A stretch of 64,000 bases of DNA, taken from the NCBI GenBank assembly GCA_963806975.1, contig CAWEAK010000022.1, positions 68,529-132,528 of the forward strand. The letters are read 5' to 3'. The translations under genes and the position numbers were made by a program. Under the pieces are notes generated by a model that saw only the letters and a list, made by a program, of their open reading frames with translations, made no database searches and was not told where the DNA came from. Below, piece after piece: positions 2,727-60,381 of this stretch. The DNA is from an uncultured Spirochaetota bacterium (lineage in GTDB: Bacteria > Spirochaetota > Brevinematia > Brevinematales > JAOACQ01). Within the stretch, counting starts at the first letter, position 1, and the number at the start of each line of letters is the position of its first letter.

Positions 2727-4085
2727 TTAACCGCCTGTTCCGAACATAAAGGACAAACCGAAAGTGTAATTCTCAAAATTTATATTACCGTTCTTAATTC
2801 TGCTTGTATATAAATAGCTTGTAGTTAATCCAATTTCCAGAAAAGAAGTCACACGGAATGCTATCAAAATTGTCGGTTCAACAGTAAAAAATGAACCTGA
2901 GCTTTGAATAACATCAGTCGTATTAGTCATATTTCCATTGCTTACTGCATTATTGTTTACTATTCCATATCCTCCGGCTCCAATCAGGCAGTTTAAATCT
3001 ATCCTGAAAAAATCAACCCGGTAATAGAAGTCTATAATCGGCCCTCCATATCCCATTGAGAGAGTATACTTATCATTCGATTTGTTAAGAAGTATACCTC
3101 CATACCCGCCACCGCCAAGGCCGAAAAAGCGGTTTATCATCCAGATTCCTCTTCCCCCTATGCACAACAAATTTCCTCTTAGGTCAAGATCAGCGGCGTA
3201 GAAATCATTCAAACCGTATTTTATCAGAGGACCACCCATCCCCCCCATATAGTTTTCTTCTTTTATAGGTATTTGATTTGAGTTGCTGATGATAGCTTCA
3301 TTTTGCTTCAAATTTGATATCTCGGACTTTTTGTTTTTGCTTTCCTTAAATTTATCCCTATTATCCTTTACTTCATCGACATAATTATCCAGGTATTGAT
3401 CATCGTTTGTTGTTTCCTTACTTTTAATATTATCTGTATCATTAAAAACATGTATTTTGTCCAGAAAATAATTAACCGTAGAATTCACAAATGATGTGAT
3501 GTCGCTTGATAATCTTCTGCCTTCATAAGCTATTCCCTTATTTTCTGTTCCTTCTTCGATTTGGCCGTTATTTTTTCCGGCATTCCTGTTATCTTTATTT
3601 TCTCCTGTCATTTCCAATACAATAGTATGTGAAGCTTCGGAGAGCCCGGATTGTGTTTCTGCCTTGGCCGTATCCCCATATTCCATAACTCCGGTCTCTA
3701 CGTCAATAACTCTCGAGTTTATATAGTATGTCCCTTCTATTCTCGTTATTGTTCCAAGCATAATCTTTTGCGCTGAGAGAAGCTGCCCGACTTTTGTTGC
3801 ATAATCACTGCCGGTGAGGCCGGATAATTCAAGCTTTTGCTCCTCCAGAATCTTAGCCATATCCTTTCTTTCAACTATCTTGAATTTCTGGCTTTTAAAA
3901 AGCTCAATCCTAACCCTCTCCGTAACAAAGTCTGCGGTATCAGCTGTAACACCGCTCCTGGGCTCAAAGTCAAGCACAGCGATAATCGGGATGCTTTTTA
4001 TAAGATTTGTCTGGGAATATGCAGCATACTTAATTAAAATTAAAACAAGGGAAAATATACATATTATATATTTTTTAAATATCAC
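2727..4085 (-). CDS. secreted hypothetical protein: N-terminal CsgG/LpoB-like domain, K/N/D-rich linker, Gly-rich beta-barrel-like C-terminus
   Basis: Signal peptide MIFKKYIICIFSLVLILIKYAAYS. The segment IAVLDFEPRSG...ERKDMAKILEEQKLELSGL...GTITRIEGTYYINSRVIDVETG resembles the CsgG/LpoB fold family. The C-terminus is rich in G and aromatic residues. No family name can be assigned without a search. Confidence 0.4.
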   Translation of the reverse strand: MIFKKYIICIFSLVLILIKYAAYSQTNLIKSIPIIAVLDFEPRSGVTADTADFVTERVRIELFKSQKFKIVERKDMAKILEEQKLELSGLTGSDYATKVGQLLSAQKIMLGTITRIEGTYYINSRVIDVETGVMEYGDTAKAETQSGLSEASHTIVLEMTGENKDNRNAGKNNGQIEEGTENKGIAYEGRRLSSDITSFVNSTVNYFLDKIHVFNDTDNIKSKETTNDDQYLDNYVDEVKDNRDKFKESKNKKSEISNLKQNEAIISNSNQIPIKEENYMGGMGGPLIKYGLNDFYAADLDLRGNLLCIGGRGIWMINRFFGLGGGGYGGILLNKSNDKYTLSMGYGGPIIDFYYRVDFFRIDLNCLIGAGGYGIVNNNAVSNGNMTNTTDVIQSSGSFFTVEPTILIAFRVTSFLEIGLTTSYLYTSRIKNGNINFENYTFGLSFMFGTGG

Positions 4086-15888: not shown

Positions 15889-17253
15889 TCATTTTTCTTC
15901 ATTAATGCCTATACCATATTCCTCAAGCTTCCTGAGAAGCGTCTTCCTTCCAATGTTAAGGATTTTAGCTGCCTTTGATTTATTCCAGTTTGTATAATCA
16001 AGCGTGGTAAATATAGCCTTTTTCTCGATTTCATAAAGAGTTGTTCCGGCTTCTACTGTGAAGCTCTTACCGATTATGTTACCTTTTATGTTTTCCGGAA
16101 TCATATCCTCCGTAATGATATCTCCATGATTAAGAACAACGATATTCTCAATTAAGTTTTGAAGTTCCCTGACATTTCCAGGCCACTGATAATTCTCAAG
16201 GATTTTAATGGCCTTAGGTTGTATTGATTTAATATTACGTTCATATTTATTTGAATAATAATTAATAAAATGTTCAGTAAAGAGAGGAATGTCTTCCTTT
16301 CTCTCGCGAAGAGGTGGAATCTGGATATTTACAATATTAAGACGGTAATAAAGATCCTCACGAAATTTACCTTCATCCACTCTCTTCAATAAATCCTTAT
16401 TTGTTGCTGTAATAATTCGGATATTTACCTTTTGTGTTTCCTCTCCTCCAACTCTGTCAAATTCCTGCTCCTGCAGGACCCGTAATAACTTTACCTGGAC
16501 ATTTTGAGAAATTTCTCCTATTTCATCCAGAAAAATAGTACCCCCGTCGGCCAGTTCGAACCTTCCTTTTTTACGCGCTATGGCTCCTGTAAAAGCGCCC
16601 TTTTCATGACCAAAAAGTTCGCTTTCGAGAAGGCTTTCGGGAAGCGCTGCACAATGTACTTTAATAAAAGGCCCTTTCGATCTCCTGCTGTTGATCTGAA
16701 TACTATTAGCAATTACCTCTTTTCCTGTACCGCTCTCTCCTGTAATTAAAACAGAAGCATCTGTAGGGGCAACCTGTTTTATTATCTGAATAATTTTCTG
16801 GAATGGTTTAGAATTGCCTATAATATTTTTAAAGCTATACTTTTCCTCAACCATTTCTTCAAGCTGATTTTGCCTAGTTCTTCTTTGGGTCTCTTCAATT
16901 GCCCTTTTTAATATGAGTGAAAGTTTATCAATATTAATCGGCTTTGTGAGAAAGTCATAAGCCCCATGTTTCATAGCATCAACGGCTTCATCAACTCCTC
17001 CATGACCCGTCAAAATGATTATTGGCGCTTCATTGTTTATCGCATAGGCCTGTCTTAAAAAATCCATACCGCCCAGATTAGGCATTTTTAAATCAAGAAT
17101 TACGGCATCCGCTCCTATGGTTTTCAACTTATCCATGCCATCCATACCATCCTCTGCGGCAATTACATCAAAACCTTCCATCTTTAATCCGCTTCTTAAT
17201 CCCTCACGTATATTCTTCTCATCATCAATTACTAATATATTCTGCCTACCCAT
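15889..17253 (-). CDS. sigma-54-dependent response regulator (NtrC/AtoC/Rrp2 family enhancer-binding protein)
   Basis: Receiver domain (ILVIDDE, ILDLKMP). AAA+ domain with Walker A GESGTGKE and the GAFTGA loop (EKGAFTGA). C-terminal Fis-type HTH KSKAAKILNIGRKTLLRKLEEYGI. Confidence 0.9.
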   Translation of the reverse strand: MGRQNILVIDDEKNIREGLRSGLKMEGFDVIAAEDGMDGMDKLKTIGADAVILDLKMPNLGGMDFLRQAYAINNEAPIIILTGHGGVDEAVDAMKHGAYDFLTKPINIDKLSLILKRAIEETQRRTRQNQLEEMVEEKYSFKNIIGNSKPFQKIIQIIKQVAPTDASVLITGESGTGKEVIANSIQINSRRSKGPFIKVHCAALPESLLESELFGHEKGAFTGAIARKKGRFELADGGTIFLDEIGEISQNVQVKLLRVLQEQEFDRVGGEETQKVNIRIITATNKDLLKRVDEGKFREDLYYRLNIVNIQIPPLRERKEDIPLFTEHFINYYSNKYERNIKSIQPKAIKILENYQWPGNVRELQNLIENIVVLNHGDIITEDMIPENIKGNIIGKSFTVEAGTTLYEIEKKAIFTTLDYTNWNKSKAAKILNIGRKTLLRKLEEYGIGINEEK

Positions 17254-23574: not shown

Positions 23575-26500
23575 ATGTATGGATTTTATTTGAGGAAAAA
23601 AGGATCTATGTCTTTAATTTTAATAAGATTCATTGTAATTATTACTCTATTATTCCCCATCTGCGGCTTTACTTTAAATCTTCTTCCCGGTACTCAATAT
23701 ATTTATTATGGCTATGGAGCTAAAGAGCTGGCTTTAGGTTTAACGGGTATTTCTGAACTTGGCAGTATCGATGGAAACAGCTTCAACCCCGCAAGTTTAG
23801 GAGATGAAAGAAGAGTTGCAAACAGCTTCACTATCGGCGGTTTTGGAAGCCAAAATTTACTTTCCTCCGCCGGTATTGCATATCCAACTGATATAGGTGT
23901 TTTTTCCATAAATGGATTATATACAGGAAATGCAAATACAAATTTCCTGAATTCTCTATATGGAGCCCAGGTAAATATTGCAAAGCCTATAACCGAAAAT
24001 CTATTCTGGGGATTTGGCATTAATTTAGGTTCAGGGACTATGGCATCATATTCAGACTGGCAAGCCGGTATTGATATGGGAATCATTTCTTCCGGTAAAT
24101 CAGATAAAACAGGGATCGGTTTTTATGATCCATCCTATGGGTTGGTTTTAAAAAATATTGGCAAAACGATTAATCTTACTCCTTACGATCCCTTCCCGGC
24201 AATGGGAATAGGTGCAGGAGCCTCTTTTTACCCGATAAAATTCGACTTCTATAAACTAAAAATTATAGGTGATCTATTTTTCCCCTTCAATCCATTCAAT
24301 GTTGTATTAAATGCCGGCATAGAAAATACCTTCTTCGATTTATTTAAACTTAGATTCGGATACATTATCAGTACACCAAGCCTTGGAATTCCTAACATAG
24401 GTCCTTTAAACTTCGGGGCTGGTCTTTCCGGTAAAATAAAGCTTAAAGATTCAACGGATATCGATCTTTCCTACGCTCTTCAGAACCAGAGCTTCAATGG
24501 AAAGCAGGAATTGGCCCATTTTGTAACTGTTAATGTCGCATGGGGATATTATGACGATCAAAAGCCGACAGCTATAATTACTCCGAATACCGTTTATTTC
24601 TCACCCAACTTTGATGCTATTCTGGATGAAGTAAAATTTTCTTTAGATATAAAAGATAATGAAATGGTTGACAGCTGGGAAGTAAATATTATCGACAGTG
24701 ATAAAAAGATCGTTAAGACTTTTAAGAGTCTTGAAAAACTGCAGTTAAGAAGTTTAACATTTCAGAAATTCATAGGACAGATTTTATCCAGAAAACAGCA
24801 GGTTGAAATACCAAAAGAAGTCGTCTGGAATGGACAGAATGAAAACGGTCTTAGAATGCCGGATGGTGAATATACTTATATTTTAAAGGCCTGGGATGAA
24901 AATAGGAATACCGTTGAAACTGAGCCCGGTAAAATCATTCTGGATACAATCGTACCCAAAATCGAAACTACTCCAAGTTATCTTATTTTCTCACCGAATA
25001 ATGATGGCGTTAAAGATGATATAACATTTAACCTAAAAAGCTCGGATATAGAAGATATTGATAAAACAAAAGCTGTTATTCAGGATACTAAAAGTAATAT
25101 TATTAAATCATATGAATTTGAAGGAAAGCTCCCAGACAAAATAGTCTGGGATGGAAGGAATAATAACGGAACATCGGCTGCAGAGGGCGAATATTCTTTT
25201 CATATAATAATATCAAATCTGGCAGGGAGCAAGGCTGAAAATACAATTACAGGCATCCGCCTTGTTACAAATTATCAAACAGTATCCGTTGAAGCCGGCA
25301 ATGATGCCTTTTCTCCAAATGGTGATGGTGTTAAAGACAATATTACTTTCAAAACTAAGATTTCCAACAGCTGGGGCCTGGAAAAATGGTCACTGAAAAT
25401 CTATGATGCTAATAATAGTGTAGTTAAAGAATTCAAGGGGGAGAAAAATCTTCCCGATTCAATAATATGGGATGGAAAATCAGTTGAAAATAAAACATTG
25501 GCGGATGGAATCTATAGTTATGATCTTCAACTTAATTTTGACAGTGGAAACTTCCCTAAATCAGCCAGGAACAATGTCAGAATCGATACAACTCCTCCAT
25601 ATCTTTCTGTGAAACCCCAATATAACTCTTTCTCTCCAAACGCAGATGGCAAACAGGATACTATCGACTTTTACAATATTGTGAAGGGTGATGGTAATGA
25701 TATTATAGAAGTTAAGATATCAGATTCTTCAGGGAACGTCGTATATTACAATCAATATGAAAAAAAGGATTTTCCAAGTACTATTACATGGAACGGTCTG
25801 GATAAAGATTTAAAACCCCTTCCTGAAGGGAAATATAATTATGAACTTGATGGAACGGATTTCGTTGGAAATAAGAGCAGCGCAGTTGTTAAAGATATTT
25901 TACTGAAAACCGGCCTTGAAAAAGTTGCAGTTCAGAGCGATGTTCCGGCTATTTCCCCGAATAATGAAAATGCTGTTCATAAAGCCTTTTTTTCCCCATC
26001 GGTAACCTCGAAAGAAGGAATTATTTCTTTTACCCTTGATATAGTTAGAGATAAAAAAGTTATCAGGTCTTTCAATAGTGATAATTTTATAGATAAAATA
26101 GAATGGGATGGGAGCGATGATTCCGGAAAAACGGTAAAAGACGGGATATATACATACCTCCTCAAAGTTAAATATAATTTTGGCGACGAACCTGTTTCAA
26201 CGGCAAAAACTATCAAAGTTGATACCGTTGCCCCTTATATAGATATCAAACCGGATTATTTAATTTTCTCCCCAAATAATGATGGAAGAAAAGACACTCT
26301 GACAATTAAGCAGGCGGTTAAGGGCGACAATAATGATAAATATCAGGCTGTAATTATTGGGCCGGAAGGAAAGTCAGAAAAAACATACAATTGGGTTGGT
26401 ACGGTGCCGGCGGAAATTGTCTGGGATGGTAATAATGATAACGGAAATCCGGTTAATGAAGGTATATACACTTACCAGATAACGGGAATTGATTTTGCTA

Positions 26501-27621
26501 AAAATAAAACATTAAAGACCATCAATGGTATAAAGCTCGTCAGAAAATTCGAGACTCTCGACTTCTCGACTGATGTAAAAGCCTTTGCTCCAAATGGAAG
26601 CGGCTCACCCAATACAATAAAATTTCTTTCATCACTTTCTTCTACTGAGGATTTACTTCAGTCGGAACTGACAATTCAGGATAGTAAGGGGGAAATAATT
26701 AAAAAATTTGTTACCGATAATGAACTGAATAAAACTATCACCTGGGATGGAAAAGATGAAAAGGGTATATTTGCCGATGACGGGTTATATACGGCTGAGA
26801 TGAGGTGTAATTTTAACAGCGGTAATCTGATAGTTTCCTCAGTTTCCAATATTGTTCTGGATAAAACTCCTCCTGCTTACAAGTTTAATGTTTCTCCTGA
26901 ATTATTCACCCCCGACGGCGATGGAGAAAACGACATCTTATTCATAAACCTTGAACTGAATGATTTCAGCGATGTTAAACAGTGGGAACTAAATATATAC
27001 AAAAAACTTGATGACGTCGCTAAAGACTCCCTATTTAAGAGATTCTCAGGTACCGGGAATATTAAGCAAATATTTGAATGGGACGGTCTTAGCGACGACA
27101 AACAGGATCACGTGGAATCAGTGCAGGACTATATTTTAGAATTAAAGGCTGAGGATACTCTTGGGAATAAACTGCCCAATGTGAATAAAGTAATATCCGC
27201 AGGAGTACTAGTAGAAAAGACCACTGAAGGCCTTAAAATAAGAGTAAGCAATATACATTTTGCCTTTGACAAGGCTGATTTGATAGGCGACAGTAAAAAA
27301 ACACTGGATAAAGTCATCTACATTATTAGAAAAATCCTTTCAGATCCTGAAAAATATGGGATTACTGAAAATTACAAGATTGAAATCAGCGGACACACCG
27401 ATGACATAGGAACAGAGGAATACAACCAGAAACTTTCTGAAAAGAGGGCTCTTGCAGTTTATAAATACCTAATCGAGAATGATATAGACCCGAAAATTCT
27501 TACATCTGCAGGTTATGGTAAATCAAAGCCTTATAAGATAATTACACAGGATATGAGTAAAGAAAAAAAGGATGATTATAGAGCTAGAAACAGAAGAGTG
27601 GAGTTTTTTATAAGAAAATAG
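23575..27621 (+). CDS. giant envelope protein: N-terminal beta-barrel-like domain, eight FlgD-Ig-like repeats, C-terminal OmpA peptidoglycan-binding domain
   Basis: 1348 aa. Signal peptide, then about 320 aa rich in G and aromatic residues. Eight repeats follow (see the repeat feature). The C-terminal OmpA motif reads ISGHTDDIGTEEYNQKLSEKRALAVYKYL...GYGKSKP...RARNRRVEFFI. Confidence 0.8.
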   Translation: MYGFYLRKKGSMSLILIRFIVIITLLFPICGFTLNLLPGTQYIYYGYGAKELALGLTGISELGSIDGNSFNPASLGDERRVANSFTIGGFGSQNLLSSAGIAYPTDIGVFSINGLYTGNANTNFLNSLYGAQVNIAKPITENLFWGFGINLGSGTMASYSDWQAGIDMGIISSGKSDKTGIGFYDPSYGLVLKNIGKTINLTPYDPFPAMGIGAGASFYPIKFDFYKLKIIGDLFFPFNPFNVVLNAGIENTFFDLFKLRFGYIISTPSLGIPNIGPLNFGAGLSGKIKLKDSTDIDLSYALQNQSFNGKQELAHFVTVNVAWGYYDDQKPTAIITPNTVYFSPNFDAILDEVKFSLDIKDNEMVDSWEVNIIDSDKKIVKTFKSLEKLQLRSLTFQKFIGQILSRKQQVEIPKEVVWNGQNENGLRMPDGEYTYILKAWDENRNTVETEPGKIILDTIVPKIETTPSYLIFSPNNDGVKDDITFNLKSSDIEDIDKTKAVIQDTKSNIIKSYEFEGKLPDKIVWDGRNNNGTSAAEGEYSFHIIISNLAGSKAENTITGIRLVTNYQTVSVEAGNDAFSPNGDGVKDNITFKTKISNSWGLEKWSLKIYDANNSVVKEFKGEKNLPDSIIWDGKSVENKTLADGIYSYDLQLNFDSGNFPKSARNNVRIDTTPPYLSVKPQYNSFSPNADGKQDTIDFYNIVKGDGNDIIEVKISDSSGNVVYYNQYEKKDFPSTITWNGLDKDLKPLPEGKYNYELDGTDFVGNKSSAVVKDILLKTGLEKVAVQSDVPAISPNNENAVHKAFFSPSVTSKEGIISFTLDIVRDKKVIRSFNSDNFIDKIEWDGSDDSGKTVKDGIYTYLLKVKYNFGDEPVSTAKTIKVDTVAPYIDIKPDYLIFSPNNDGRKDTLTIKQAVKGDNNDKYQAVIIGPEGKSEKTYNWVGTVPAEIVWDGNNDNGNPVNEGIYTYQITGIDFAKNKTLKTINGIKLVRKFETLDFSTDVKAFAPNGSGSPNTIKFLSSLSSTEDLLQSELTIQDSKGEIIKKFVTDNELNKTITWDGKDEKGIFADDGLYTAEMRCNFNSGNLIVSSVSNIVLDKTPPAYKFNVSPELFTPDGDGENDILFINLELNDFSDVKQWELNIYKKLDDVAKDSLFKRFSGTGNIKQIFEWDGLSDDKQDHVESVQDYILELKAEDTLGNKLPNVNKVISAGVLVEKTTEGLKIRVSNIHFAFDKADLIGDSKKTLDKVIYIIRKILSDPEKYGITENYKIEISGHTDDIGTEEYNQKLSEKRALAVYKYLIENDIDPKILTSAGYGKSKPYKIITQDMSKEKKDDYRARNRRVEFFIRK
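24562..27200 (+). repeat. eight tandem domain-coding repeats (about 105-130 codons each) inside the giant OmpA-family gene
   Basis: Recurrent signature F/I-SPN-x-DG-x-x-D...(I/V)-WDG-x-(N/D)...G...(A/P)-(D/E)-G-x-Y-x-Y. Anchors are FSPNFDA, FSPNNDGVKD, FSPNGDGVKD, FSPNADGKQD, ISPNNENAVH, FSPNNDGRKD, FAPNGSGSPN and FTPDGDGEND. The nucleotide sequences have diverged. Confidence 0.7.
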
Positions 27622-27651
27622 AAAGAGGGCCGCCAAAAGCGACCCTCTTTC
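27621..27651. terminator. GC-rich hairpin between convergent genes
   Basis: GAAAGAGGG-CCGCCAAAAGCGA-CCCTCTTTC forms a 9-bp stem. No strong U-tract follows. Confidence 0.5.
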
Positions 27652-27678
27652 ACTATTGATATATCATAACTGATCTAT

Positions 27679-28509
27679 TTAAAGAGCATAATAGTAATAT
27701 GCCAGAGATGGAAACCTGGACCTCAGAAGAGCAATAACCCTTCTTTCAATTTGTCTCGTGGCTTCGGCAGATATTGAATATTTGCTTCCCAAGCTATGTA
27801 GTGTCTCTTTTTCCTCACAGTTAAACCCATACCTTTTTTTTATTATATCGCTCTCTCTGCAAGGAAAAGAATTAATTGCTTTCTGGATATCGTTTGATAA
27901 TATTCTGGATTCCACAATTTTTTCGGGATTATAAGTGTTATCCTGTATACTTTCAAATACATCATCGTTTGTTTCAAAAATACCACTGTTGGATAGAAAA
28001 TCTCCATTACCCTTAAACATTATCAAAACATCTATAGCATCCCTTCTCTTAACGTTTAAGTCTTTCACAATATCATCAATTGTTGGTAGTTTTCCAGAAT
28101 CAGCGAAAAATTCCCTGATATAGCTTTTTACCTTTTTATTAATTTCATCCTTCCTGTAAGATATACTCACACCAACTGTTGGTTTAATAAAACCTCTTAA
28201 AATGGATTGCTTGATCCAGAATGCAGCATAGGTAGAAAACTTTACTCCTCTTGTAGAATCAAATTTCTTAGCCGCTTTTATCAAGCCAAGATTGCCGTTT
28301 TGTATAACATCCATAATTGAAGAGCTCCCCCTGCACAATTCAAGAGAAATTTTTACAACAAGTTTTAGATTTGAATTGATCAATTTGTCAAGGGCGGTTT
28401 GATCGCCATTCTTGATCTTCTTTGCATACTCTATTTCTTCATCCGTAGTAATTCTAGAATACTTCGAAATATTATTAATGTACTGTTTTAAAATAGCCAC
28501 ATCCTTCAT
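27679..28509 (-). CDS. sigma-70 family alternative sigma factor (divergent RpoS/RpoD-like, regions 2-4)
   Basis: Region 2 LKLVVKISLE...DVIQNGNLGLIKAAKKFDSTRGVKFSTYAAFWIKQSILRGF and region 4 ETLHSLGSKYSISAEATRQIERRVIALLRS. The start is set at ATG 28509 (MKDVAILKQ), preceded by AGGAGG. The track start 28566 would place the promoter inside the ORF. Confidence 0.8.
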   Translation of the reverse strand: MKDVAILKQYINNISKYSRITTDEEIEYAKKIKNGDQTALDKLINSNLKLVVKISLELCRGSSSIMDVIQNGNLGLIKAAKKFDSTRGVKFSTYAAFWIKQSILRGFIKPTVGVSISYRKDEINKKVKSYIREFFADSGKLPTIDDIVKDLNVKRRDAIDVLIMFKGNGDFLSNSGIFETNDDVFESIQDNTYNPEKIVESRILSNDIQKAINSFPCRESDIIKKRYGFNCEEKETLHSLGSKYSISAEATRQIERRVIALLRSRFPSLAYYYYAL

Positions 28510-28539
28510 ATTCGGCCTCCTCTGGGGACGAATATATAT

Positions 28540-28555
28540 TGCAATATCTGTGCCA
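28540..28555 (-). promoter_or_regulatory. sigma-54 (-24/-12) promoter TGGCAC-AGATA-TTGCA
   Basis: The minus strand from 28555 to 28540 reads TGGCACAGATATTGCA, an exact match to the core consensus TGGCAC-N5-TTGCW. It is followed by about 17 nt, AGGAGG, then ATG 28509. Confidence 0.75.
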
Positions 28556-28778
28556 TTCATCTTCAATAATTAGCTTTTTTATTATATGAATATTACTCAT
28601 ATAAAGAATAATTTTGATAAGATAGATTTTTAATAACAATTAGTATGCTTTTTTATACATACTCTAATGAATTACTATTGATAATAATAAGTAATTTGTT
28701 AAAAATCTATTTATTTTCGATGATATTTAAGATCAATATACCTATTTTGAAGATTTCATATTCTTGAATAATATTTCT

Positions 28779-29297
28779 CTATTTTTCAATATCGTCAAGC
28801 CATTTTAAATCTTCTTTTTCAAGCTCAAGCTGTATCTTATATGCCACATCATTTTTTTTAAATTTATTTGAAAGCTCAAAAACCAGTTTTTTTATTCTAT
28901 AAACCTCTACTGAAGTAAGAAATTTTCCTATACCCTTATTCTTAACAAAATCATTAAGTAATTCTAAAACTTTAATGTTGGCGCAGGTTTCCAGAAGGAA
29001 ACTATATTGCGCTATCTGTTTATAATACTTATTTTTGATCATAATTATAAATATTTTATTTATATTTGAAGCAAGGAATGGAGAAACATCAACAATTTCA
29101 TTCTTTAAGTTCTCGAATAAAAAAGAAAAGCCTTCTATGTCCTCTTTTTTCTTTATTATTGATAAATAATTATTAATAACATTGACAAAATTTTTATTAT
29201 CCAGATGATAATGTCTTTTTAATTCCTGAAAATCTTCAGCTTTCATAGCAAAGATATTATTCTCAAGTTTTTCAACGACATCCTTTGAAATTTTCAT
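28779..29297 (-). CDS. hypothetical protein, predicted all-helical, no recognisable domain
   Basis: 172-aa ORF whose start lies 4 nt downstream of the stop of the PP2C gene, on the same strand. K/E/N-rich, with no TM segment. Confidence 0.5.
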   Translation of the reverse strand: MKISKDVVEKLENNIFAMKAEDFQELKRHYHLDNKNFVNVINNYLSIIKKKEDIEGFSFLFENLKNEIVDVSPFLASNINKIFIIMIKNKYYKQIAQYSFLLETCANIKVLELLNDFVKNKGIGKFLTSVEVYRIKKLVFELSNKFKKNDVAYKIQLELEKEDLKWLDDIEK

Positions 29298-29301
29298 AGT
29301 C

Positions 29302-31383
29302 TTACTCCATTATTTCCAGTAAGATTACTGTAATGTCATCTATCCTATAGATTTTCTCCTGACTGTCGCCATTATGCTTTTCATTTATTATCTTCTCTTC
29401 TAATATTTCCTTCATTCCCTTTATACTTAACTGATTGTTATTCAGCAGATATTGTTTAAGAAGCTCTTGCTCGTTTGAAAAAATATCAAGTATCCCATCA
29501 CTAAATAAGCAAATTTTTTCACCAGACTTAATGTTTCTAATTTCTTCCATATAATTAAACTCTTCAATAATTCCAACAGGAGGAGATTTATCCATTCCAA
29601 AAGTTTCACTTTTTCCTTCTTTATTAATAGTAATTGCATGAGGATGCCCTGCCGAACTATATTTCATAACTTTATTTTCTATATCAATTAAAATTACAAA
29701 TAAAGTAACAAATTTACTTCCATTCATATTAAGATTAATAATTTTTCTATTCATCATTTTTAAAAAAAGAGATAAATCTATATCTTTATTATGCTCAAAA
29801 GAACTCTTAAAATCGCCATAAACATCCTTAACCAATACTGTAAGCATTGAGGCCCCTATTCCATGACCGGATACATCGGCTAACATGGCTAAATAATACT
29901 TTTTCTTCTCAATTTCAATTTCGTCGATGTAATAGAAATCTCCTCCGATTTCGTCTGATGGTAAAAATATACTTTCAAATTTAATATTTTTATTATTGGG
30001 AAGATCCTGCGGTATAAGACTTAAATGCATGCTTTTTGCTACTTGGAGATTATCAATGAGGTTTTTATTCATTTCTTCAAGCTTTTCCCTGGTATTCATA
30101 ATATATGTATTATCAATAAAAAAAATTATCACTCCCTGTAACGTTTCCATACTTTTTATTGGGAAAAAGCGAATATTGTACCATAGACCGGACATTTTCA
30201 TATTTACAAAATTCAATTCCAAATCACTTTTTTCTAATTCCTTTATCTTTTCTTTCATCTCCAATCCAAATCCTCTTGGAAAAACCTGAGATATCTCCTT
30301 TCCAAGATAACTGCCGTTGCTATTGATAATATTTTTTACCTTTTCATTCAGATAAATGATCCGGTTTTCCTCATTCAATAAAACAATACCATCCCTTGCA
30401 TTTTCTACAATACTTTTATTGATCATTGCCTGTCTTTTAATGCTGTTTTTCCATATTTCTTCCTTTGTAATATCTTTTATAATAATGTAAAAACCCGAAA
30501 AAATATCCTTAATAATTATCCTTTTCAAAATTCCCTCTGTTATTACTTCGGTAAAATTGCAATCTCTTGTTATTAGATCAATTTTAACCTCATCAATTTT
30601 CTCAGAAATCTCAACGGTTTTGTAAAATTTCTGCAGAGAACCGCTGTCAATAAAATCAATAAATTTTTTATTAATAACCTCATTGGAATCATAACCAAAC
30701 ATTATTTCAGCCCCTTTATTCCAAGAAGTAATATTGTATTCTGAATCAACGGAGATAAAAGCGTAGTCTTTTATACTTTCCAGCATAACCTGTTTTATAT
30801 CCAATTCTCTTTCATTAATCACCGTTATGATATCAATAATTCTTTCTTTAATTTTTCTGGTATTAAAAAATATTTTCCTTTTTGCTCTATAAAGTGAGAG
30901 CCTGCTATTATAGACAAAAATATAAAAGGCAAAAAGTTTTTTACCCTGGAAGATAGGTAAAACAAGAAACTTTTTCTTTTTTTTAAATATATTCTGTTGA
31001 AATTTAGTTTCCAGTTTTCCTTCCCGAATCTTTTTTAATTCTTTTAACTTCTTTATTTCAATCTTTTCATTTTGGCTGATTTTTAAAGCGCTTAATACCT
31101 CTTCATTTTTAAAAGAAATTGTTTCAATATGAAATGCTTTTTCATCAATGAGAAAAAATAGGGATAAATCGGAAAGTAAGATGTTTCTCAATTCATTGCA
31201 TAGATAACTGAAAAAATCTTTTGAAAAACTGATGGATATCTTTTCTATCCTTAAAAAATTTTTAAACATTCTTTCAAGTAAAATATCAAATTGATAAGAA
31301 TTTTTCGCAAAATCAACTGACAAAAAAACAAGGAACAAAACTAAAATGCTTATCATTAATATAATAATATAAGAACTGCTCAT
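29302..31383 (-). CDS. membrane-anchored sensor PP2C phosphatase (N-terminal TM and GAF-like region, two PAS-like modules, SpoIIE/RsbU domain)
   Basis: PAS-like segments (ITSWNKGAEIMFGYDSNEVINKKFIDF; RDGIVLLNEENRIIYLNEK). PP2C motifs GGDFYYID, ADVSGHGIGASM, FSDGILD and DDITVILLEI. Confidence 0.8.
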   Translation of the reverse strand: MSSSYIIILMISILVLFLVFLSVDFAKNSYQFDILLERMFKNFLRIEKISISFSKDFFSYLCNELRNILLSDLSLFFLIDEKAFHIETISFKNEEVLSALKISQNEKIEIKKLKELKKIREGKLETKFQQNIFKKKKKFLVLPIFQGKKLFAFYIFVYNSRLSLYRAKRKIFFNTRKIKERIIDIITVINERELDIKQVMLESIKDYAFISVDSEYNITSWNKGAEIMFGYDSNEVINKKFIDFIDSGSLQKFYKTVEISEKIDEVKIDLITRDCNFTEVITEGILKRIIIKDIFSGFYIIIKDITKEEIWKNSIKRQAMINKSIVENARDGIVLLNEENRIIYLNEKVKNIINSNGSYLGKEISQVFPRGFGLEMKEKIKELEKSDLELNFVNMKMSGLWYNIRFFPIKSMETLQGVIIFFIDNTYIMNTREKLEEMNKNLIDNLQVAKSMHLSLIPQDLPNNKNIKFESIFLPSDEIGGDFYYIDEIEIEKKKYYLAMLADVSGHGIGASMLTVLVKDVYGDFKSSFEHNKDIDLSLFLKMMNRKIINLNMNGSKFVTLFVILIDIENKVMKYSSAGHPHAITINKEGKSETFGMDKSPPVGIIEEFNYMEEIRNIKSGEKICLFSDGILDIFSNEQELLKQYLLNNNQLSIKGMKEILEEKIINEKHNGDSQEKIYRIDDITVILLEIME

Positions 31384-37420: not shown

Positions 37421-37624
37421 TTATTTACTCTGATCTATTGCATACCTGATAGATTTTCCAAGGAAACGGCTGAATTTATCCTCAACCTCACTTGTTTTTT
37501 CTCTGATTACCATTTTATTGCCAGAGTTAAAAAGGATAATTGTGTCGGGTGTTTCTTCCATATATTCAATAAGGAAAGGATTTATTGTAATTTTTGTGCC
37601 ATTCAAACGTGTTACTTCGATCAT
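37421..37624 (-). CDS. flbD: flagellar protein FlbD
   Basis: MIEVTRLNGTKITINPFLIEYMEETPDTIILFNSGNKMVIREKTSEV is the typical FlbD sequence. The start is taken at the second ATG. Confidence 0.85.
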   Translation of the reverse strand: MIEVTRLNGTKITINPFLIEYMEETPDTIILFNSGNKMVIREKTSEVEDKFSRFLGKSIRYAIDQSK

Positions 37625-57547: not shown

Positions 57548-58619
57548 TCATCCATGTTCTACAGCGCCACTTTCCTTTGTAGCCTCTGAACCGGATCCAA
57601 AACTTGATGGAATTGCCCCTTCGATTAATTTTTTACGTACCTGTTCTTCAATTTTTTTCAGAAACTGTTGTTTATCTTCCATTTCCTTCAACAGGTTCTC
57701 TCTGCCCTGTGCTATTCTCTCTTCGCCGTAAAAATACCAGGTCCCTTTTCTTTGAATAACACCACATTCGATGGCAGCATCAATTAAACACCCGGTTTTA
57801 GATATTCCTTTACCAAAGATAATGTCAAATTCAGCCTGTTTAAAGGGAGCGGCCATTTTATTTTTTACTACTTTAGCTTTTACCCGGTTGCCGTAATTAT
57901 CCTCTCCTTTTTTTAATGCTTCCAATTTGCGTATTTCAATACGGATAGATGAATAAAACTTCAGCGCCATTCCTCCAGTAGTGGTTTCAGGATTTCCATA
58001 AACCACTCCTATCTTCATCCTTATCTGATTTATGAAAATAACGGCTGTCCTGGTTTTGCTTATTATGGCCGTGAGTTTACGAAGAGCCTGGGACATAAGT
58101 CTTGCCTGCATACCCATCACAGAATCACCCATATTTCCATCGATTTCTGATTTTGGCACAAGAGCAGCAACAGAATCAATCACAATTAATTCAACTGCTC
58201 CACTTCTGACAAGGCTTTCAACAATTTCCAGGGCTTGTTCACCTGTATCAGGTTGTGAGATAAGAAGATTTTTTATATCAATACCGATATTTTCAGCATA
58301 GATGGGGTCTAGTGCATGTTCTGCGTCGATAAAGGCGCATGTTCCCCCCGCCTTTTGAGCTTCTGCTATAATACTTAAAGTTAGAGTAGTTTTCCCTGAA
58401 GATTCAGGACCATAAATCTCTGTTACCCTCCCATAAGGAATACCGCCTATTCCTAAAGCTAGATCAAGAGTAAGGGCTCCTGTGGAAATTACAGGAACAT
58501 CGGTAACTTTTGGCCTATCACCCAGCTTCATAATATGATCCCTTGCCGTATTCTTTTTCGATCTGTGCTATCGCCACCTGTAATGCCTTTTCTTTCTCTT
58601 TATCCGCTAATTCAGCCAT
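57548..58619 (-). CDS. recA: recombinase RecA, with an apparent 1-nt frame disruption after codon about 28
   Basis: The main ORF (57548-58531) carries GPESSGKTT and the full RecA core. The expected N-terminus [28 protein letters not shown] is encoded from ATG 58619 in another frame and runs into a stop. Confidence 0.9.
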
Positions 58620-58700: not shown

Positions 58701-60381
58701 TTATGCAGGATTATTCGGAAGCTGAATATAAAAAGTTGTTTCTTTATCCCCTGTTTCAAACCAAATGTTACCGTTATGTTCAAGGATAATTCGCTCTGCA
58801 ATTGCAAGACCTATGCCACTTCCATGCTCTTTAGTTGTAAAATAAGGTTCAAAAATTTTATCCTGAATCTCTAATGGAATTCCTTTTCCTTTATCAGAAA
58901 TAGATATAATAAAATTATTTTCAGATGAATATCCAGATAAAGTTATCTGTTTTTCACTCTCCACGCTTGATTCGACGGCATTATTCACAAGGTTTATTAT
59001 GACCTGTTTAATTTGACTCTCGTCAAAATTAAGAAAAAAATCTTTCAGATTGATATTCCGATTTATTGTAAATGCAGGATAAGCGTTTTGAAAAAAATCA
59101 GCAAGTTCATTCAATAGAATAATAATATCCCTATTCTCAAGTTTTGGATTTGGCAGCCGTGCAAACTGAGAAAATTCATTTACTAATTTTTCAAGCCTTT
59201 TAGTTTCATTAATTATTGTGGAAGTTGTTTTATTCAAAATTTTCTGAAATTCATTAGGTTTAGATTCATAAGCATATTGAAGACGTTCCGCAGATAATTT
59301 TATAGGAGTCAGTGGGTTCTTTATTTTCATGCGCCAGCCTGCGGGCCATTTCCTGCCAAGCCTCCATACGCTCCATACTTTTTATCTGCCTGTAAGCCGT
59401 TTTTAGCTTAGTTGCCATGGAATTAAAGTTATATGAGAAATCTCCAATCTCATCATGGGTATGAACATGTACTTTATAATCCAGATTACCATCAGCTATT
59501 AATTTTGTACCTTTTACTATCTCTTCAATTGGGACAGTAATATTCCTAGCCACAAAAAAACTCATGAAAAACACACCTACCAATATAGGAACAGTAAGTA
59601 TAAAGATTGAAAGAATTGATACTGGTAGGATATATCTTTTTAATAACCTTAATTGGTATAGAGTATCTGCATTATTTTTTAAATTAAGAAATGCATCAAT
59701 TAATTCTTTTTTCATATTGTTCGCATAAAAAAGATTTCCATTCTTCATAATTACAATGTATGGAACTTCACCAAGATAAAAAAACTTATTTTTTGTGTCA
59801 TTAAAATACTTGATTATATTACTTTGAGACAGCATTACTGATTTTTTGATCTCCTCATCGGTGTTTAATTTGAAAGATATTAAATCATTGTTAATAGTAA
59901 ATATTATAGGAAAGTTCTGAGAATTTAGTTTTAAGTTTGATGTCAGATAGTTTTCAAAATCATTTTTATTCATATTTATCATATTTTTGTAATTGTCAAG
60001 CAGGTTATCTGCAACACTTCGTTCTTTATCAATAAATGTATTTTCTATCAAAAATATCAGATAGAACATTAAAGCGCCGAAAATAATAACAAAACCGAGG
60101 GTTGAAAGTAGAAAGTATGAGGTAATTCTAGCCCGCAGGTTGTAACCGCGAGCTCCTCTTCTCTGAAAGATAAATAGTTTAAAGAAATTGAATAATAACC
60201 ACAAACCAATAAAAGAAGCTATAAAAAATATAGTTGGTATAGTAGTTTTAAGAGTAGTATTTGCCTGAACGGAATATAACCAGCCATACATTCCGGCGGC
60301 AGATAAAATAGACAATATTGTAATAAGAAAAAATATGATGACATTAAGTCTCTTACTCATTGATAATACCATTCTTATCAA
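58701..60381 (-). pseudogene. NtrY-like sensor histidine kinase (TM-HAMP-HisKA-HATPase), frame broken inside the H-box
   Basis: The upstream ORF ends ...MARRLAHENKEPTDSY. The downstream ORF starts MKIKNPLTPIKLSAERL. Joined, they read RRLAHEIKNPLTPI, a canonical H-box. HATPase motifs NLVNNAVES, DKGKGI and GSGIGLAIAE are present. Confidence 0.8.

Follow-up and report, generated by a model that had tools for sequence, protein, structure and literature searches.

A probable sigma-54-dependent promoter and a candidate enhancer dyad upstream of an RpoS-like sigma factor gene in Brevinematales spirochaetes

Introduction

How is the gene of a compact alternative sigma factor switched on in a Brevinematales spirochaete, and is its control related to that of rpoS in Borrelia? 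The question is raised by a 64-kb stretch of DNA (64,000 nucleotides, hereafter the window) from an uncultured Spirochaetota bacterium, contig CAWEAK010000022.1, in which a sequence resembling a sigma-54 (-24/-12) promoter stands directly upstream of a sigma-70-family gene on the minus strand. The sigma-54 core consensus is TGGCAC-N5-TTGCW, with invariant GG and GC doublets, and in Borrelia burgdorferi rpoS is transcribed from a -24/-12 promoter by RpoN together with the NtrC-type activator Rrp2. An earlier note on this DNA proposed that a low-GC, spirochaete-like genome may place an alternative sigma factor under sigma-54 control in the same way, and comparison across orthologues supports that proposal. 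The description of the genome also holds: its G+C content of 34%, the FlaA and FlgE genes in the window and relatives named Brevinematales identify the host as a Brevinematales spirochaete. We argue that the element TGGCAC-AGATA-TTGCA is very probably a working sigma-54-dependent promoter of an RpoS-like sigma gene, and that a conserved dyad further upstream is a candidate enhancer.

A single exact sigma-54 element precedes the sigma gene

The minus strand reads TGGCAC at 28555–28550, AGATA at 28549–28545 and TTGCA at 28544–28540, with the GG doublet at 28554–28553, the GC doublet at 28542–28541 and exactly 10 nucleotides (nt) between the doublets. Eighteen nt separate the end of TTGCA from AGGAGG (28521–28516), which is followed by ATG 28509, in agreement with the motif, ribosome-binding site and start codon that the earlier note had claimed. 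The element starts 46 nt before this ATG, and the C of the GC doublet lies 31 nt before it. On both strands of the window, TGGCAC-N5-TTGCW is matched exactly only at 28555–28540, where 0.02 matches are expected per window and 2 of 100 dinucleotide-preserving shuffles contained one. When up to one mismatch is allowed, three sites are found against 0.98 expected, so that only the exact site stands out statistically by itself. Sigma-70-like hexamers, scanned over 27400–29500, are at background level, with 12 found and 12.2 expected from shuffles. The geometry of sigma-54 promoters predicts a transcription start at 28527–28530 and hence a leader of about 18–21 nt.

The downstream gene encodes a compact RpoS-like sigma factor

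The gene product, 276 amino acids long, contains the Pfam domains Sigma70_r1_2, Sigma70_r2 and Sigma70_r4, and neither region 1.1 nor a Pfam region-3 match was found in it. Its nearest NCBIfam models are the RpoD/SigA subfamily, proteobacterial RpoS and RpoD, which score about equally and all far below their curated cut-offs; on the proteobacterial RpoS equivalogs (TIGR02394/NF004207) it scores 150.1 and 144.4 bits, where the respective cut-offs are 378.7 and 394. SigA and RpoS chains in the PDB align to residues 7–267 and are about equally close (E = 1e-35 to 1e-27). Taken together, the Pfam, NCBIfam and PDB results define a compact group-1/2-like (‘RpoS-like’) alternative sigma factor, about equidistant from SigA/RpoD and RpoS, which bears out its earlier labelling as an RpoS/RpoD-like sigma gene. 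Judged by its sequence, the protein resembles RpoS in no more than size and architecture and lies outside the curated RpoS equivalog.

The reading frame of the gene formally runs back to TTG 28566, as had been claimed, and thus encloses the promoter element. Translation from this codon would yield a 295-residue product beginning MKMNGTDIAIY. A database search returned about 50 relatives of the sigma protein at 49–93% identity, almost all of 274–277 amino acids and some named Brevinematales; in the 43 that were aligned, M1 is invariant and the N-terminal consensus is MKD. The entry for the 170,426-bp source contig in a public protein collection (P0261) is the exact 276-residue product from ATG 28509. 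Because the lengths of the orthologues, their shared N-termini and the public gene call all favour ATG 28509, we take the extension to be untranslated, as the earlier note had thought probable. A ribosome-binding site of the GGAGG/GGGGG type directly precedes the ATG in 19 of the 19 loci compared.

The element is conserved across orthologues and distant relatives

Eleven orthologous loci (L001–L011) were obtained from a scan of species-representative genomes and three more (L081–L083) from a metagenome scan. These 14 loci derive from Brevinematales/Spirochaetota metagenome-assembled genomes (MAGs), encode proteins with 48–71% amino-acid identity and range in G+C content from 33 to 58%; the upstream region of L082 matches that of L006. 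TGGCA[CT]-N5-TTGC[ACT] is found in all 14, starting 37–54 nt before the ATG. In the 272 kb formed by the window and L001–L011, the pattern TGGCA[CT]N5TTGC has 15 matches on both strands, 12 of which lie 37–54 nt before an orthologous sigma ATG. The DNA around the element is unalignable between orthologues. This lack of alignable flanking sequence, together with the wide range of G+C content, argues that the element is under selection.

More distant loci were fetched from matches at 33–39% identity to the sigma protein. Five distant spirochaete relatives (L161, L162, L163, L166 and L167; 36–38% identity) carry the promoter element. L161 represents another Brevinematales lineage, in which a PAS-SpoIIE gene lies upstream of the sigma gene and the promoter, TGGCACGCTTATTGCA, is at -37. 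The other four, from Spirochaetales/Spirochaetia MAGs, have the gene order rod genes, Rod-binding (FlgJ), sigma, and the promoter TGGCA[CT]-N5-TTGC[AT] at -36 to -41. Over the 19 promoters, a count matrix shows no variation at T, GG, C, A and TTGC. Within 400 nt upstream of 137 control loci, which encode unrelated sigma-70-family proteins (~30% identity) from Eisenbacteria, Microbacteriaceae and other groups, TGGCA[CT]-N5-TTGC was not found once. Conservation before orthologous sigma genes, which the earlier note had suggested as a check, thus extends to 14 of 14 orthologues and five distant relatives, against 0 of 137 controls.

A conserved dyad lies at enhancer distance

When the spacers were placed in register by their -24 elements, a dyad of the form GTAT-N8-ATAC came to light, a feature beyond those in the earlier note. 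In the window, the dyad reads GTATAAAAAAGCATAC at 28658–28643, starts 103 nt upstream of TGGCAC and has an A-rich spacer. Exact GTAT-N8-ATAC sites number 18 in the 272 kb, and half of them (9/18) lie 94–135 nt upstream of the -24 element of a sigma gene. With up to one mismatch, the dyad is present in 17 of 21 loci, ~87–135 nt upstream and mostly at -94 to -127, where 0.03 sites are expected per 50 nt; the remaining four loci have a two-mismatch dyad at the equivalent place. Nearly every locus has the A-rich spacer on the same strand. The four other exact sites in the window all fall inside coding regions, lack the A-rich spacer and were treated as chance.

The dyad extends beyond the Brevinematales. 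In L163 and L166, both Spirochaetia, it is identical to that of the Brevinematales locus L006 (GTATAAAAAAACATAC at -109). The closest relatives outside the clade (33–36% identity) occupy the flgJ–sigma position of Borrelia rpoS and have both promoter and dyad. Multiple copies are also seen: L006 has two, 28 nt apart, and L161 has three GTATAC-type dyads at 2818–2892 (GTATACTTTAGTATAC, GTATATTTTTATATAC and GTATACAAAAATATAC) with 29–30-nt spacing upstream of its sigma-54 promoter, which looks like an array for cooperative binding.

NtrC-family enhancers have dyad symmetry, measure ~16 bp, lie ~100 bp upstream and often occur in multiple copies. From its position, symmetry, size and multiplicity, the conserved dyad is probably an enhancer for a sigma-54 activator, and its presence suggests enhancer-dependent activation of the sigma promoter.

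A candidate activator is encoded in the window

The protein encoded at 15889–17253, which the earlier note had named as a possible activator, proves to be a genuine member of its class. It has the Pfam domains Response_reg, Sigma54_activat (E = 5.7e-73), AAA_lid_14 and HTH_8 together with a GAFTGA loop; its best NCBIfam match, below cut-off, is AtoC, and the public protein P0141 is 100% identical to it. Francke et al. assign Rrp2 to the AtoC-like class (PMC3162934). Orthologues at 72–77% identity share contigs with the sigma orthologues of L001, L005 and L011, so that the activator is conserved in genomes that carry the sigma gene, and family identity is 55–58% in Spirochaetales and Treponemataceae. 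In L164, a 58% orthologue (P0196) is encoded 1.6 kb from the sigma gene, and a PAS-HisKA-HATPase kinase gene (L164:1–1389, minus strand) lies directly upstream of it. Across 17 aligned members of the family, the receiver residues D10, D11, D54, T82 and K104 are invariant and HTH_8 is intact. We regard the 15889–17253 protein as the best candidate activator for the sigma promoter.

Other sigma-54-like sites in the window

A second sigma-54-like site, TGGCATAGCTTTTGCG, occupies 4143–4128 on the minus strand, 58 nt before GTG 4085 and with GGAGG in between. The open reading frame (ORF) downstream of it (2727–4085, minus strand) encodes a 452-amino-acid CsgG/LpoB-like lipoprotein, and a XerC/D-type integrase gene (1840–2718) comes after the lipoprotein gene. 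The site is a second good candidate promoter by its sequence and hints at an active sigma-54 in the host. Two one-mismatch sites on the minus strand are probably chance matches, since about one such site is expected per window: TGGCATAGGTCTTGCA at 58803–58818 is inside a histidine-kinase ORF, 272 nt before recA (57548–58531), and TGGCACAAAAATTACA at 37586–37601, situated between flgE and a 714-amino-acid ORF, departs from the consensus within the GC doublet.

Weighing the evidence

Several observations weigh against a sigma-54 cascade of this kind. The first concerns rpoN itself: the RpoN-box peptide is absent from six-frame translations of the window and L001–L011, which amount to only ~270 kb. 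The co-occurrence of sigma-54 with its activators in genomes is reported to be near-perfect (PMC3162934). On the strength of this reported co-occurrence, the GAFTGA activator in the window and the purifying selection on the -24/-12 element, we infer that rpoN is present in the host genome. The second concerns the activator, whose gene is ~11 kb from the sigma promoter and whose orthologues lie within 10 kb of the sigma gene in none of the 11 loci L001–L011; moreover, the invariant residues of its helix-turn-helix (HTH) domain are generic for Fis-type HTH domains and say little about target specificity. The third is that the promoter is degenerate in some relatives. In L164 (TGGTATGAAACTTGAT, 2948–2963) and L168 (TGGCATAGAAATTGAT, ~50 nt before ATG 4001), the GC of the -12 element has become GA, and the Treponema pedis homologue, for which 46 nt of upstream DNA were read at the contig end, has TAGCATAATTTTTGCT (L170:6–21; TAGCAT-N5-TTGCT), with GG changed to AG. 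The wiring is thus not universal, and the cascade may have decayed or been rewired in those lineages. Finally, Rrp2 in Borrelia does not bind upstream DNA, unlike the enhancer use proposed here, and no terminator separates the upstream gene from the sigma gene (28779–28566, within a scan of 27400–29500), so that read-through transcription may contribute.

The last two points bear on two alternatives. One accepts the promoter and assigns the dyad to some other regulator, such as a repressor, a Fur/BosR-like factor or a nucleoid protein, while the activator acts from solution. This would be in keeping with Borrelia, where no binding of purified Rrp2 was seen in the 238 bp upstream of rpoS and activation was enhancer-independent, proceeding without upstream DNA (PMC1976401). 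Nor would a simple symmetric dimer site need an A-rich spacer whose strand is the same almost throughout. Yet NtrC-family enhancers typically have the position (~95–120 nt upstream), symmetry and 16-bp size of the dyad and, as in L161 and L006, multiple copies ~30 nt apart, and HTH_8 is intact in 17 of 17 aligned family members. We consider a non-enhancer role for the dyad somewhat unlikely.

The other alternative is that transcripts of the sigma gene arise mainly through read-through or at a sigma-70 promoter belonging to the unit formed by the upstream PP2C phosphatase gene and the gene of a 172-amino-acid protein, with the -24/-12 element minor or conditional. All three genes point the same way and keep their synteny in 10 of 11 loci, and no terminator-like hairpin interrupts them between 28779 and 28566; the one terminator that the scan detected on their strand comes after the sigma gene. 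A longer rpoS transcript from the upstream flagellar genes has been reported in B. burgdorferi. Predominant read-through does not account for a divergent 270-nt spacer in which nothing but the -24/-12 element and the dyad is conserved, or for the retention of the element behind a wholly different upstream neighbour, flgJ, in L162, L163, L166 and L167; nor are sigma-70-like hexamers any commoner there than in shuffles (12 versus 12.2). As the main route of transcription, it appears rather improbable, and it is compatible with a sigma-54 promoter rather than exclusive of it.

That the motif is a chance match in AT-rich DNA, or coding sequence within the extension from TTG 28566, is scarcely credible and is already refuted by the comparative data: the six-frame ORF does formally reach 28566 and a match turns up in 2 of 100 shuffled windows, but the element stands at the equivalent place in 19 loci of 36–71% protein identity and in 0 of 137 controls, the orthologues are almost all 274–277 amino acids long with 43 aligned sharing the start and a public call of 276, and a ribosome-binding site is conserved before ATG 28509.

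A proposed two-step cascade

With a sigma-54-dependent promoter as the preferred explanation, the following sequence of events can be proposed by analogy with established sigma-54 biology. Sigma-54 RNA polymerase would bind the GG (28554–28553) and GC (28542–28541) doublets as a closed complex, which a phosphorylated NtrC/AtoC-class AAA+ activator would remodel through ATP hydrolysis. The activator, for which the 15889–17253 protein is the best candidate, would most likely assemble on the GTAT-N8-ATAC dyad at 28643–28658. Transcription would start near 28527–28530 and produce a ~20-nt leader with AGGAGG, allowing translation from ATG 28509. The new sigma factor would then redirect polymerase to its own regulon, completing a two-step cascade like the Rrp2-RpoN-RpoS pathway of Borrelia. 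The motif and its conservation, the gene start, the domains of the activator and the conservation of the dyad are observed; the presence of rpoN, the start site, the dyad as enhancer and the use of the 15889–17253 protein as activator are the parts of this scheme that we infer.

Genomic neighbourhood

The features of the locus are collected in Table 1.

Table 1. Coordinates of the sigma gene, its predicted control elements and associated genes in the window
Feature	Position	Strand	Basis
Candidate enhancer (upstream activating sequence), dyad GTAT-AAAAAAGC-ATAC (GTAT-N8-ATAC)	28643..28658	.	Conserved at enhancer distance
Sigma-54 (-24/-12) promoter element TGGCAC-AGATA-TTGCA	28540..28555	-	Direct read, unique exact match, conservation
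Predicted transcription start	28527..28530	-	Sigma-54 geometry, 11–14 nt downstream of GC doublet
Ribosome-binding site AGGAGG, 6 nt before ATG 28509	28516..28521	-	Direct read; conserved in 19 loci
Probable untranslated leader and promoter, formally within six-frame ORF from TTG 28566	28510..28566	-	Orthologue lengths, N-termini, public gene call
276-amino-acid sigma-70-family factor gene, group-2-like/RpoS-like, regions 1.2, 2 and 4	27679..28509	-	Pfam, NCBIfam, PDB, orthologues
Intrinsic-terminator-like hairpin, 14 pairs and T-rich tail, directly after sigma gene	27621..27651	-	Terminator scan
NtrC/AtoC-class response-regulator activator, receiver (REC) - AAA+ (GAFTGA) - HTH_8	15889..17253	-	Pfam, NCBIfam, motif
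Conserved 172-amino-acid protein, all-alpha helical repeat, directly upstream of promoter region	28779..29297	-	Synteny, AlphaFold2
693-amino-acid PAS-PAS-PP2C (SpoIIE-type) phosphatase	29302..31383	-	Pfam SpoIIE and PAS, synteny

Upstream of the sigma gene, the order HD phosphohydrolase, PAS-PAS-PP2C phosphatase, 172-residue protein, promoter, sigma gene is kept in 10 of the 11 orthologous loci. The 172-residue protein has no Pfam or NCBIfam family match and only 20 homologues were found, restricted to the clade. Its AlphaFold2 model contains ten helices at a predicted local distance difference test score (pLDDT) of 92.9; a Foldseek comparison with the PDB gave generic TPR-like and designed repeat proteins, none significant (best E = 0.16). 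The protein, whose gene always stands between that of the phosphatase and the sigma promoter, may represent a new partner of one or the other product, sigma factor or phosphatase, and it is a speculative possibility that phosphatase and helical-repeat protein add post-translational control of the sigma factor. A PP2C phosphatase adjoining a sigma gene recalls partner-switching control; no STAS protein or anti-sigma kinase was seen.

On the other side of the sigma gene, a 1348-amino-acid ORF (23575–27621, plus strand) with many repeats of ~90–100 residues, visible by eye, is convergent with the sigma gene and has a common terminator region with it. An Rfam scan of 27300–29400 gave only two sub-threshold chance matches, both over the terminator. 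Elsewhere in the window (58701–60381, minus strand), a sensor histidine kinase appears to be divided between two ORFs, which lie in different frames and have 65 nt in common. ORF 59266–60381 has a HAMP domain, and the match of ORF 58701–59330 is to the C-terminal kinase core of proteins of this type. A frameshift or an assembly error may be responsible, or the gene may be a pseudogene.

Comparison with known sigma-54 systems

The closest parallel is the Rrp2-RpoN-RpoS cascade of B. burgdorferi, whose RpoS is BB0771. Both organisms belong to the phylum Spirochaetota, and in both a canonical sigma-54 promoter with a near-identical core (TGGCACAGTTTTTGCA in B. burgdorferi, TGGCACAGATATTGCA in the window) immediately precedes the gene of a compact and divergent RpoS-like sigma factor, while an AtoC-class response regulator with REC, AAA+ and HTH domains is encoded in the genome. 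The order rod genes, flgJ, sigma recurs in the related Spirochaetia loci with the same promoter, and the kinase–activator order in L164 is that of hk2-rrp2. The differences are equally clear. The window and 10 of 11 orthologous loci have the PAS-PP2C phosphatase and the 172-residue protein upstream, not flgJ; the activator of the window has no adjacent histidine kinase, whereas hk2 adjoins rrp2; and there is a conserved dyad at enhancer distance, in contrast to the enhancer-independence reported for Rrp2. The leader is also shorter, the element starting 46 nt before the ATG here and 62 bp before it in Borrelia. On the B. burgdorferi side, the comparison of the promoter draws on gene order and on primer sequences in PMC1976401. 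That study places the rpoS promoter in the interval behind flgJ, 62 bp ahead of the start codon of rpoS, and maps the transcript to a start 14 bp past the GC doublet. From gene order and promoter, membership in the Borrelia cascade by descent is plausible.

Classical enhancer-dependent promoters, such as glnAp2 with NtrC and the nif promoters with NifA, have the same GG/GC spacing, a ~16-bp dyad ~100 bp upstream and a GAFTGA-loop activator with a C-terminal Fis-type HTH. The dyad sequence differs: the NtrC site is TGCACC-N5-GGTGCA and the NifA site TGT-N10-ACA, whereas GTAT-N8-ATAC is not a known enhancer consensus. The target differs as well, being a sigma factor gene and not a metabolic or envelope gene.

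In the flagellar hierarchies of Vibrio, Pseudomonas and Legionella, fliA is sigma-54-dependent. Links from sigma-54 have been described to sigma-S in Borrelia and, as a prediction, to sigma-32 in enterobacteria (PMC3162934). As in the fliA and sigma-32 cascades, sigma-54 would here drive a second sigma gene in a hierarchical switch gated by an ATP-dependent activator, with the difference that the second factor is a group-1/2-like sigma with region 1.2 and not a group-3 flagellar or heat-shock factor. For spirochaetes other than Borrelia, no report of a sigma-54-to-RpoS cascade was found in the literature searched.

Implications

The same arrangement in distant spirochaetes makes the sigma-54-to-RpoS cascade look ancient and not peculiar to Borrelia. 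We propose tentatively, and with somewhat less than even confidence, that a module consisting of the GTAT-N8-ATAC enhancer, a ~100-nt spacer, the sigma-54 promoter, the RpoS-like gene and an AtoC/Rrp2-class activator is ancestral to at least Brevinematia and Spirochaetia, that the Borrelia switch is an inherited stress or development circuit of free-living ancestors from which the enhancer was lost, and that the dyad is the long-sought DNA target of the HTH domain of the Rrp2 family. The claim is comparative only; it is of value mainly for evolution, falls within a specialised field and overturns nothing. Should it be true, the PAS-PP2C phosphatase and the helical-repeat protein would become new candidate regulators of the sigma factor. 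We know of no target of the Rrp2-type DNA-binding domain in Borrelia, and the dyad would offer a concrete candidate DNA site for activators of this type. The wiring that serves as the central switch of virulence in the Lyme-disease spirochaete would then be ancient, common to the deep-branching, free-living Brevinematales and the flgJ-linked Spirochaetia.

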